Shown here: positions 2,289 to 7,877 of the stretch, piece by piece
Position numbering within the stretch: the stretch's first letter is position 1
How the letters are laid out: every line of letters begins with the position of its first letter
DNA from: a virus
Lineage: Duplodnaviria; Heunggongvirae; Uroviricota; Caudoviricetes
IMG/VR virus record: IMGVR_UViG_2740892369_000015
DNA: 8,110 nucleotides
Reading direction: 5' to 3' (one strand)
Made by a program: the position numbers and the translations under genes
Notes under the pieces: model-generated
The model's database searches: none
What the model was told of the DNA's origin: nothing
Seen by the model: only the letters and a program-made list of their open reading frames with translations

Positions 2289-2624
2289 ATGAAGTGGATT
2301 GTGATTGATACAGTTATCCAGCCATCATGCGGAATATCTTTTTCAGTCATATGGAGTAAAATAAAATTAATAATCTGGTATCAATCGGATGCTTTCTTAC
2401 CTCCTGAAAGTATATTTACACTGACTCACACAGGCATCATGCTCAATAACAAAGTGCTACCTGTAACCATTTACAACGTAGTACCATTCAATAAAACATT
2501 CTGGAATTTAATCAAAAACAGCCAGGAATGCCCTACAAATACAGATAACGTATTGAATGAATGCTTTAATAACCGTTGCACTCTGCAAATATGTCCTTAT
2601 GGACTAAAACAACAAAGTCCATAA
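2289..2624 (+). CDS. Hypothetical Cys-containing protein (111 aa) in an AT-rich islet, oriented against late transcription
   Basis: ATG preceded by AAGGAAAG at appropriate spacing. A 336-nt open frame is unlikely by chance in such AT-rich DNA. A perfect 12-bp inverted repeat (2594-2605 / 2616-2627, 10-nt loop) spans its stop codon and is followed by GTTTACTC. No homolog recognised by eye. Confidence 0.4.
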
Positions 2625-2642
2625 GGAGTTTACTCACATCTG

Positions 2643-2678
2643 ACAAAATCAATATAAACAGCCCCTCCGGAGAGGGGC
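2643..2678 (-). terminator. Rho-independent terminator for minus-strand transcripts
   Basis: On the minus strand GCCCCTC-TCCG-GAGGGGC (7-bp GC-rich stem, 4-nt loop; plus coordinates 2661-2678) is followed by TGTTTATATTGATTTTGT. The plus strand has no T-tract after the hairpin. Confidence 0.5.
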
Positions 2679-3071
2679 TGGAGAGTGGCGCTATGTGCCA
2701 TTGCATGGTGCCGGGTGCCTCCCGGTGAATTCAGTACCAGCACCTGAATCCGCGATTATCCCATATACCTACTCGCTGATTGCCCCTCCGCACAGGGGGA
2801 TTCACCATGCCAGTTTCTTTTAACAAACTCCCCGCAAACCAGACAACAGTCAACCGCCTGAATTGTGAAGTATTTAAAAATTTCTCCCGCTAACTGATAC
2901 CCGGCTAACAGTCTGGCGTTTTCTTTTTCAGCAACGGGAAAGCAACAACCACCACACCCGCCACCAGTACACAGTCAGCCAGCACTGACATTATCCGGCT
3001 GCTGCAATGCCATTCACAAAAACAGTAAGCAATCACTTTTTACCGTAACAGGTGATAATCCAGATATGTAT

Positions 3072-3398
3072 CTACCCCAGATGAGTAATCCGAAGTTCAT
3101 CCATACCACAGGTCCTGGCTATTCTGTTGTACTCCTGAACAAGAGCAAATAATTCTGAATTAGCAACCATGAACTCATCGCAAACCCTCTGTATAGCATC
3201 ACTATTCAGAAGAATAACGTCTCTTCCCGAAAGACGATCAGGAGTACAGAACAAAACTGTCAAACGGCTGAAGGCCTTTGCTCGTGCTGCATTGACTATA
3301 TCAATACGCTGCCTAAGGATGAAACACCCCGACGCCTCATCAATATTCACTCTACCCACACCATATGAATGATAAATATTTAATACTGAAAAAACCAT
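3072..3398 (-). CDS. Hypothetical protein (108 aa from ATG 3398; the ORF track extends it to a TTG at 3425) in the stx-equivalent cargo position
   Basis: Open frame co-oriented with the late operon, with protein-like composition. There is no strong Shine-Dalgarno. A weak sigma70-like promoter can be drawn upstream on the minus strand (TTGTCA at 3453-3448, 17-nt spacer, AAGTAT at 3430-3425). Not recognisably similar to Stx A or B subunits. Confidence 0.35.
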   Translation of the reverse strand: MVFSVLNIYHSYGVGRVNIDEASGCFILRQRIDIVNAARAKAFSRLTVLFCTPDRLSGRDVILLNSDAIQRVCDEFMVANSELFALVQEYNRIARTCGMDELRITHLG

Positions 3399-3535
3399 TA
3401 GACCGTATAACAAACACTCAATCAATACTTAACAGAACTTTTATTTTTGACAAACATATAATATTTTCAACAATATCCTGAGCCAGGTATATTCCAGTAT
3501 AAGGCTCTGCCGGAAGAAATCTGGAAGAATGAATA

Positions 3536-3612
3536 TGGCGCGTTGTACTGGATTCGAACCAGTGACCGATTGCTTAGAAGGCAATTGCTCTGTCCGGCTG
3601 AGCTAACAACGC
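3536..3612 (-). tRNA. tRNA-Arg (anticodon UCU)
   Basis: Reverse complement is GCGTTGTTAGCTCAGCCGGACAGAGCAATTGCCTTCTAAGCAATCGGTCACTGGTTCGAATCCAGTACAACGCGCCA. It has a 7-bp acceptor stem, D-arm GCTC/GAGC, anticodon stem ATTGC/GCAAT with loop CTTCTAA, T-arm ACTGG-TTCGAAT-CCAGT and an encoded CCA; 77 nt. Confidence 0.85.
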
Positions 3613-3625
3613 ATAATGCAGATAA

Positions 3626-3702
3626 TGGATTGCCATCGGGGACCCGGGCCCCACACAGCCAGTTTCGAAAGCTGACGCTCTCTGCCGATGAGCTAATGGC
3701 GG
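3626..3702 (-). tRNA. Degenerate tRNA-Arg-like gene (anticodon loop TTTCGAA, i.e. UCG), possibly a pseudo-tRNA
   Basis: Reverse complement is CCGCCATTAGCTCATCGGCAGAGAGCGTCAGCTTTCGAAACTGGCTGTGTGGGGCCCGGGTCCCCGATGGCAATCCA, exactly 77 nt in canonical tRNA layout with a good D-arm. The acceptor stem has 2 mismatches, the anticodon stem is weak, and the T-loop CCCGGGT lacks the TTC motif. Confidence 0.5.
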
Positions 3703-3709
3703 TATGTGA

Positions 3710-3785
3710 TGGTGGCCCTTGCTGGATTTGAACCAGCGACCTGGCGATTATGAGTCGCTCGCTCTCACCACTGAGCTAAAGGGCC
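3710..3785 (-). tRNA. tRNA with CAU anticodon (Ile2-lysidine type or Met; ileX/ileZ-like)
   Basis: Reverse complement is GGCCCTTTAGCTCAGTGGTGAGAGCGAGCGACTCATAATCGCCAGGTCGCTGGTTCAAATCCAGCAAGGGCCACCA. Acceptor GGCCCTT/AAGGGCC, anticodon loop CTCATAA, T-loop TTCAAAT, encoded CCA. It closely resembles E. coli ileX as recalled from memory. Confidence 0.85.
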
Positions 3786-3834
3786 GGTAGCAGAATAATA
3801 ATGGTGCGTAATTAATTCTGCAATCCCATCCGTT

Positions 3835-4884
3835 TCAAACGATTAAATCCTGAACTTCCCTGACTGTCTGTTCAAAACGTCCTGTCTCCAGCTCAACACC
3901 AATCGCACAACGCCCCAGTGCCATCGCCGCTTTTACCGTTGAACCTGAACCCATAAAAAAATCTGCAACCAGGTCTCCCGGACGACTGCTCGCGTTGATT
4001 ATCTGCTGCAGCATTTCTGCCGGTTTTTCGCACGGATGTTTCCCTGGATAGTACTGCACCGGTTTATGCGTCCAGACATCGGTGTACGGAACCTGCGCCG
4101 TCACACCGAAATACCGCCGCAAATTTTTATATTCACTCAGCAGTTCCGTATACTGCCGGTTCAGCCCACTGTATGTGCTGACCAGCTGGTGGTGTGGCTT
4201 TTCCAGTTCCCCGCGCTGATGTTTTTCTGCCGCAACACGCGCAAACAACGCCTGCAATTTGTTGTAATTACCCTCGTTCGGTAACTGCCACTGACTGGTA
4301 CCAAACCAGTGCGAAGCCATGTTTTTCTTTCCGGTGGCTTCCGCTATCTGTTTTGACGTTATTCCCAGTGATTTACGCGCATCACGAAAGTAAGAAATCA
4401 GCGGGGCCATGACGTGCTGTTTTAGCTCGCGCCCCTGTGCCACATAGCCATCATCTTTCGGGCGATACGGTCCCTGATAATGTTCTGCAAACAGAATGCG
4501 CTCTGTTGCCGGAAAATACGCCCGCAGACTTTCCTTATTGCACCCGTTCCAGCGTCCGGACGGCTTCGCCCAGATAATATGGTTCAGCACATTAAAGCGC
4601 TCACGCATCATGATTTCGGTGTCAGATGCCAGGCGATGACCAAAGAACAGGTAAAGACTTCCGGCAGGCTTCAGTACCCGCCAGAACTGCGCCAGACACT
4701 GGTCCAGCCATTTCAGGTAATCATCGTCGCCCTCCCACTGGTTATCCCAGCCCTCGGGCTTCACTTTAAAGTATGGCGGGTCTGTGACTATCAGATCGAC
4801 AGAGTTTTCCGGTAAGGTCTGGATAAATTCCAGGCAATCAGCGTTGATTAACTCACAACTGGATATTTTTACAGTATTAATCAT
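3835..4884 (-). CDS. Beta-class DNA methyltransferase (N6-adenine or N4-cytosine), apparently orphan
   Basis: 349 aa with catalytic motif IV DPPY (LIVTDPPYF) near the N-terminus and AdoMet motif I FxGxG (FFMGSGST) near the C-terminus, the order typical of beta-class amino-MTases. No restriction endonuclease ORF is adjacent. The ATG at 4882-4884 overlaps the stop of an upstream frame as ATGA. Confidence 0.85.
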   Translation of the reverse strand: MINTVKISSCELINADCLEFIQTLPENSVDLIVTDPPYFKVKPEGWDNQWEGDDDYLKWLDQCLAQFWRVLKPAGSLYLFFGHRLASDTEIMMRERFNVLNHIIWAKPSGRWNGCNKESLRAYFPATERILFAEHYQGPYRPKDDGYVAQGRELKQHVMAPLISYFRDARKSLGITSKQIAEATGKKNMASHWFGTSQWQLPNEGNYNKLQALFARVAAEKHQRGELEKPHHQLVSTYSGLNRQYTELLSEYKNLRRYFGVTAQVPYTDVWTHKPVQYYPGKHPCEKPAEMLQQIINASSRPGDLVADFFMGSGSTVKAAMALGRCAIGVELETGRFEQTVREVQDLIV

Positions 4885-5351: not shown

Positions 5352-5380
5352 ACATAAAAAAACCCGCATAAAGCGGGTTC
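5352..5380 (-). terminator. Rho-independent terminator immediately downstream of the Q-like gene (tR'-like)
   Basis: On the minus strand AACCCGC-TTTA-TGCGGGTT (plus 5361-5379) is followed by TTTTTTTATG. Position is analogous to lambda tR', which ends the short pR' transcript unless Q-modified. Confidence 0.6.
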
Positions 5381-5463
5381 TTTCAGGTGTCCATGTCTGC
5401 TATTCGCCTCGCGGTATAGCTTTGCGAAGCGTAGCTGGATTGAAACAGTTTATGCGTAAAAAA

Positions 5464-7780: not shown

Positions 7781-7809
7781 GGAAAAAACAAAACCCGCCG
7801 AAGCGGGTT
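7781..7809 (-). terminator. Rho-independent terminator downstream of hokD
   Basis: On the minus strand AACCCGC-TTCG-GCGGGTT (plus 7792-7809) is followed by TTGTTTTTTCC. Confidence 0.55.
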
Positions 7810-7877
7810 AAGTGCGGGTGCGTTGAGGATGCCTGACTCATCAGAGGTGGCGAGGGATTTCTCCCTCGCCTGGTCTC

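Follow-up and report, generated by a model that had tools for sequence, protein, structure and literature searches.

The small hydrophobic open reading frame (ORF) on the minus strand of the window (the whole stretch of 8,110 nt analysed here) originated as the C-terminal half of a DUF3927/TciB-like gene. That it is the remnant of such a tciB-like gene is our firmest conclusion; to the whole reading, in which this remnant persists through its position and not as a toxin gene, we give a probability of roughly three in four. That the remnant is functionless also appears likely to us, although we hold this with less confidence than its status as a remnant; the peptide is probably either not made in meaningful amounts or without a function of its own.

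The window corresponds to the late-region cargo slot of a lambdoid prophage of E. coli and is read here along the minus strand. The order begins with DUF968, RusA, DUF1133 (Q-like), a 65-aa hypothetical gene and a DNA methyltransferase, and continues with tRNA-Ile2 (CAT), a degenerate tRNA-like stretch, tRNA-Arg (TCT), a 117-codon ORF and the small ORF. Then follow an STnc100-family sRNA gene, an iraM-like gene on the opposite strand, a SASA-family esterase (nanS-p type) and the lysis genes. The late transcript runs on the strand of the small ORF, which makes transcription of the ORF after induction probable. The features around it are listed in Table 1.

Table 1. Features of the window at and around the small ORF, in the order of the minus strand
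Feature	Position	Strand	Evidence
117-codon ORF, TTG start, inside the 518-bp segment 3005-3522	3072..3425	-	phrog_2873, E = 1.8e-69
Trace left by the 3' end of the former TerB/tciA-like gene (TCTGGATTATCACCT vs TCTGGAGAATCATCT)	3050..3064	-	alignments
Decayed 5' part of the ancestral gene, including the GTG of the 43-aa form (3036-3034)	3005..3049	-	alignments
Last homologous in-frame ancestral codons (..S S R I)	2992..3004	-	BLASTN break; alignment A1
28-codon ORF and TAG: helix 2 and KKK tail of a DUF3927/TciB-like gene	2905..2991	-	sequence, PF13064, RefSeq, alignments
STnc100-family sRNA gene, full-length	2650..2839	-	Rfam RF02076, 132.4 bits (gathering score 47)

The frame opens with the ATG at 2991-2989, closes with the TAG at 2907-2905 and translates as MSVLADCVLVAGVVVVAFPLLKKKTPDC (28 aa), as the sequence-only reading had it. 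The in-frame GTG yields a 43-aa version (2905..3036), and a TAA at 3042-3040 shuts the frame directly upstream. The hydrophobic segment with a lysine tail described in that reading was also found: residues 7-21 form a core of 15 uncharged residues, the only hydrophobic run, which is followed by KKK and is plausible physically as a membrane anchor. The ribosome-binding site is weak, as had been noted. A GGA ends 2 nt ahead of ATG 2991, and the predicted anti-Shine-Dalgarno pairing energies of -3.3 kcal/mol (ATG 2991) and -3.0 kcal/mol (GTG 3036) are at the level of the window background (-2.9 ± 2.6). The accepted genes of the window have equally weak Shine-Dalgarno energies, so that the measure does not discriminate and a weak site at the small ORF does not exclude translation. 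As 66 ORFs of at least 40 aa lie within the window, the length of the small ORF alone is not beyond chance.

The family assignment came from profile searches. The 28 residues alone matched Pfam PF13064 (DUF3927) with E = 2.2e-14 (53.6 bits, cut-off 25), and the 43-aa form matched the same profile with E = 8e-26 (90.2 bits, cut-off 25). A further match was obtained to PHROG 1470 ('TciB-like', phrog_1470; E = 6.4e-12). The PF13064 match of the 28 residues contradicts the earlier suspicion of a chance frame from the GT-rich tract, and we discarded that explanation. Nor is the ORF unannotated, as had been believed: the family is already known, and RefSeq holds the exact 28-aa CDS as WP_000114356.1, 'DUF3927 family protein', a label present in every full-length match sampled. 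The identical protein (P0018) occurs in at least 795 contigs of the protein collection. The frame proved to be conserved in related prophages, a check that the sequence-only reading had asked for. The reason is that it encodes the C-terminal half of a member of an established family of small membrane proteins and is not a stand-alone toxin gene. NCBIfam and PADLOC gave no meaningful match for the small ORF, the intact protein or the 117-aa ORF. A literature search by the family name DUF3927 returned an incidental mention only, and one by the name tciB returned unrelated papers.

The match is confined to positions 26-53 of the 53 in the PF13064 profile. Full-length members have about 50-60 aa and two hydrophobic helices, whereas the 28-aa ORF has one hydrophobic run. 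The (V/I)DF(S/T)S motif is incomplete; its DF is gone, and only SS is left, in the frame that has no ATG. The turn motif SV(L/I)xD(G/A) reads SVLADC in the window, with Cys after the invariant Asp, a position held by Gly in six and by Ala in one of seven aligned intact proteins. This window allele, G7C within SVLxDG, is a sign of relaxed sequence.

The intact relatives (54-57 aa) read MTVKMRLAVVALLLFLVVMV(VMV)DFSSRIMSVLADGVLVAGVVVVAFPLLKKK.., or more fully MTVKMRLAVVALLLFLVVMV(VMV)DFSSRIMSVLADGVLVAGVVVVAFPLLKKKASGD, and contain two hydrophobic runs parted by a conserved (V/I)DF(S/T)S..SV(L/I)xD(G/A) segment. Eleven intact loci were sampled, starting from two intact proteins. In all 11, the last 4 nt of a 143-aa TerB gene (PF05099) are also the first 4 nt of the small gene, with the TerB gene at 3573-4004 of the locus, the small gene from 4001 and a GTGA overlap at 4001-4004. 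Because the GTG start of the small gene overlaps the TerB stop, translation of DUF3927 is presumably coupled to that of TerB. In 10 of these loci the slot of the pair is that of the window, with Q or the tRNAs on one side and the SASA-family esterase (nanS-p type) with the lysis genes on the other; the exception is L011, where tail genes come after the pair. The small gene of the intact loci lies just upstream of the STnc100 sRNA gene, in the same order as in the window.

Phage counterparts of the pair are tciA-tciB-tciC of P1 and terB-upf69.4 of P7, and the pair is annotated as tciA/tciB in phage JLK-2012. Outside E. coli, the coupling to TerB was seen in P1 and P7 only. The P1 tci genes were named for the similarity of TciA to TerB (PMC10695390). 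P1 TciB (MASKARIAIAIGFLLLSVLVDFTSTILSVLSDGALVAVAVTLVWPILKTASKDQ) aligns over its whole length with the intact relatives. A tblastn search of phage records with the intact 57-aa protein gave no matches, most likely owing to low-complexity masking of the hydrophobic sequence, and the phage relatives were found by DNA searches instead.

TciB of P1, upf69.4 of P7 and the 'tciB' of JLK-2012 are homologous to the part retained in the window, SVLxD..LVA....(F/W)P(L/I)LK, and the intact lambdoid tciB copies share with it the genomic slot and the downstream neighbours. Unlike TciB, the window ORF represents the second half only: it has neither the original start codon nor helix 1, and the VDF(S/T)S motif is lost; moreover, Cys replaces the Gly of SVLADG, and no tciA/TerB gene lies upstream. 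Whereas the intact E. coli modules (for example L003, L006 and XECs205 of Sakai) combine a 143-aa TerB gene with a complete 54-57-aa gene through the GTGA overlap, their place in the window is taken by a 117-codon ORF unrelated to TerB and by a decayed 5' region.

The boundary of the truncation was located by BLASTN against the intact loci. Homology extends through the tRNA region to window position 3523 and is followed by a non-homologous segment of 518 bp (3522-3005). High-identity homology resumes at 3004, the third base of codon 25 of the 57-aa gene, which corresponds to position 4075 in L003, L006 and L002 and to 4066 in L008. From 3004 down to 2000, the window is 93.8% identical to L003 across the 3' half of the DUF3927 gene, STnc100, the iraM-like gene and the start of the esterase gene. 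The window thus retains codons 26-57, and ATG 2991 corresponds to Met30, inside the 57-aa ancestor. In alignment A1, a block of 22 nt (CAGCAGCCGGATAATGTCAGTG) does not vary.

When aligned with the 5' coding region of the intact gene, the 45 nt upstream of 3004 scored 47.5, compared with a mean of 12.4 for shuffled sequences (z = 8.8). By this alignment they are not foreign but belong to the decayed 5' part of the ancestral gene. Here, the ancestral GTG start has become GTT (3049-3047), and the helix-1 region, compared with the 54-aa allele, is short of a net 20 nt. The frame is thereby shifted, and the original one meets a stop after 11 codons. The TerB stop TGA has become TTA, so that the former overlap with the DUF3927 start, GTGA, now reads GTTA. 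The TerB gene itself is absent from the window, and with it the overlap of an upstream TerB gene with the start of the small gene. A programmed frameshift that would restore helix 1 was considered and discarded, as net 20 nt of the helix-1 coding sequence are missing. The same decayed 5' end was present in every truncated copy sampled from IMG/VR and metagenomes, which points to one ancestral truncation event that spread afterwards.

The place of the TerB gene is occupied by the 117-codon ORF, whose product showed no similarity to TerB by BLASTP. This ORF was without RefSeq annotation in 29 of 30 E. coli genomes sampled, and in the 30th it was partially matched under a hypothetical protein. 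Its 99 copies contained 6 synonymous and 14 non-synonymous variants, a ratio not distinguishable from neutral. We also observed a weak terminator-like hairpin inside it, at 3236-3218.

The decayed 5' end also bears on the proposal that translation really starts at GTG 3036 and gives a 43-aa protein with a Cys/His-rich N-terminus (IAYCFCEWHC) fused to the membrane helix. This form is an annotated CDS in the phage record mEp460_ev081, which has the truncated arrangement too; it is among the annotated small proteins of CFT073 (PMC11188072 Table S1), and several database entries of 37-47 aa begin likewise. Nevertheless, the extension consists of the frameshifted remains of the helix-1 coding region, and the PHROG profile aligns only from residue 12 onward. 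Nor is the extension conserved, since the GTG is lost (GTT) in 6 of 95 copies and a TAA interrupts the extension in 2 of 95. The ribosome-binding site of this start is at background, and the RefSeq call for the allele is the 28-aa form. We consider a 43-aa product very improbable.

The truncated arrangement is widespread. Among 5426 complete E. coli genomes, the segment with the 117-codon ORF was found with at least 80% coverage in 1184, the query spanning its junction in 1184 and a wider 901-bp query in 1184, that is, in 22% of the genomes. The equal counts indicate that the segment and the truncated DUF3927 gene travel together. The closely related intact TerB-DUF3927 junction was found in 607 of the 5426 genomes, roughly half as many as carry the truncated form. 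Many O26:H11-type and other EHEC chromosomes contain the 901-bp stretch around the small ORF with 100% identity.

This abundance counts in favour of a new functional microprotein, a single-helix peptide of 28 aa started at the internal ATG, expressed by late transcription and retained by selection, with a possible role in interfering with, or replacing, the intact TciB-like proteins of other prophages that share the cell. Of about 138 sampled copies, essentially all have kept the 28-codon frame open, and the core with its KKK tail could serve as an anchor. Within the 84 coding nt, 127 comparable truncated copies showed 12 events, 7 synonymous and 5 non-synonymous, counted as events not placed on a tree. 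The non-synonymous share is below the neutral expectation, but with 12 events the deficit is borderline, and its one-sided binomial p value shifts with the assumed transition bias, from 0.024 at kappa 1 (no bias) to 0.074 at kappa 8. The open frame and this ratio could mean that the peptide is still under some constraint, which speaks against a relic; the abundance of the truncated form and the probable late transcription count on the same side. In addition, entries in the supplement of PMC5597208 report ribosome footprints for an intact member, XECs205 of O157 Sakai (55 aa, a predicted two-helix inner-membrane protein).

Against selection on the peptide stands, first, the start itself, since in the ancestral gene ATG 2991 coded for a methionine inside the protein, and its ribosome-binding site does not rise above background. 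At the low divergence of these copies the frame would be expected to stay open in any case, as only 2.7% of substitutions would make a stop. The ORF is polymorphic at 11 of 84 sites, compared with 12 of 163 in the downstream stretch of spacer and sRNA. Non-conservative changes are common in large lineages (G7C, the window allele; L4P, the Shigella allele; and V16A), and many rare alleles have lost 1-6 residues, in frame, from an already short helix. The synonymous bias could also have been imported. One copy (L136) is a recombinant within the ORF, with a 5' end of the truncated type and the '..KKKASGD' tail of another allele, which shows that variation can enter from the intact alleles, where purifying selection acts; in the 24 codons shared with them, the intact alleles contain 6 synonymous and 3 non-synonymous variants. 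The truncated form is not among the Sakai Ribo-seq entries listed in the same supplement, which is a weak point. The Ribo-seq study of the Enterobacteriaceae microproteome covered MG1655 and BL21 only. Taken together, we regard a functional microprotein as unlikely. We would give somewhat less credence still to its fuller version, a newborn 28-aa microprotein from a former internal Met, selected in about a fifth of E. coli genomes, which might modulate intact TciB/TerB modules of prophages in the same cell or have an effect on the membrane during induction.

We also observed that the GT-rich coding tracts (window 2940-2975; P0062, P0063, P0070, P0003-P0011) vary in length by whole codons. In helix 1 of the intact alleles, VMV occurs one to three times, giving proteins of 54, 57 and 60 aa, and helix 2 of the truncated alleles carries deletions of 1-6 residues or duplications of 4-5 residues, with occasional frameshifts (P0027, P0028). 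Variation in codon steps suggests replication slippage. In four IMG/VR copies with the G7C allele (L037, L041, L100, L114), a deletion lies in the spacer just past the stop codon.

The sequence-only reading had placed the small ORF with the type I toxins, membrane-damaging peptides whose translation is checked by an antisense or overlapping small RNA. The traits behind this proposal are present. The ORF encodes a small hydrophobic peptide with one membrane helix, alike in size, single helix and basic tail to Hok/Gef, Ldr, TisB, Ibs, ShoB and Zor, and an sRNA gene, STnc100, lies nearby. However, no sequence relationship to these toxins was found: at E ≤ 10, Pfam returned only DUF3927 and no Hok, Ldr, TisB, Ibs, ShoB, Zor or DinQ family. 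Rfam, searched at E ≤ 10 on both strands of 2600-3150, returned only STnc100 and nothing over the small ORF. The STnc100 gene begins 65 nt downstream of the stop of the small ORF on the same strand and hence is not antisense to it. The promoter scan found no plus-strand promoter-like site near the small ORF from which an antisense RNA could start. The sole minus-strand site (3019-2990) has its -10 box on ATG 2991 itself, and promoter-like matches in the region were not above chance (4 found, 2.2 expected).

The ancestry argues in the same direction. The intact family is the second gene of the TerB operon, and the small ORF descends from its two-helix, operon-encoded protein and not from a toxin/antisense pair. 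In P1, a CRISPRi screen found tciA, tciB and tciC to be non-essential, and toxicity was not reported (PMC10695390). The toxin reading did not hold up against these results, and we judge it exceedingly improbable.

The history of the tciB-like remnant is reconstructed as follows. The ancestral unit was a phage cargo module consisting of a cytoplasmic TerB-domain protein (tciA-like, 143 aa) and a two-helix membrane protein of 54-57 aa. In the lineage of the window, the unrelated 518-bp segment took the place of the TerB gene, the start of the small gene changed from GTG to GTT, and the net loss of 20 nt from the first-helix region closed the original frame. What stayed open is the part from the internal Met30 to the stop, with helix 2 and the KKK tail. 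The remnant may persist through its place between a recombination-prone junction and the STnc100 gene, while probably still recombining with intact alleles; its persistence would thus be due to location and not to toxin coding.

These findings have consequences for annotation. Homology-driven pipelines label the fragment 'DUF3927 family protein' with no partial flag, so that half a gene enters the catalogues of small proteins as if it were a gene; in E. coli, this truncated form is commoner than the intact locus. The prophage slot swaps cassettes beside a conserved sRNA. To learn the role of the family, one would do better to study the intact DUF3927 protein, which consistently comes with a TerB-domain partner. 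If the remnant were translated and selected, it would be a tidy case of a microprotein born by gene truncation, which the present evidence does not support.

The STnc100 gene, a conserved neighbour that the remnant travels with, ends in a strong terminator-like hairpin at 2680-2659. STnc100 has been related to the PasD sRNAs of EPEC in a 2026 preprint (10.64898/2026.05.13.724894), and several of its copies are expressed in EDL933 (PMC5331693). RefSeq places a partial pseudo 'hypothetical protein' CDS antisense to it (window 2695-2820, plus strand; 3596-3721 in L001), which is probably a spurious call over the RNA gene. The iraM-like anti-adaptor gene beyond it (2289-2624, plus strand; NCBIfam PRK09919, E = 4.7e-48) lies in the part of the window with the lowest GC content (0.30-0.39).

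On the other side of the 117-codon ORF, tRNA-Ile2(CAT) at 3710-3785 and tRNA-Arg(TCT) at 3536-3612 flank the degenerate tRNA-like stretch (3629-3702, minus strand), which scored 22 bits, below the gathering score of 29, and received no ARAGORN call. It is probably the decayed middle member of a prophage tRNA trio. Sub-threshold isrK-like Rfam matches (gathering score 50) were also observed on the minus strand at 7788-7869 (27.8 bits) and at 5357-5430 (21.6 bits), the latter just downstream of the Q-like DUF1133 gene.
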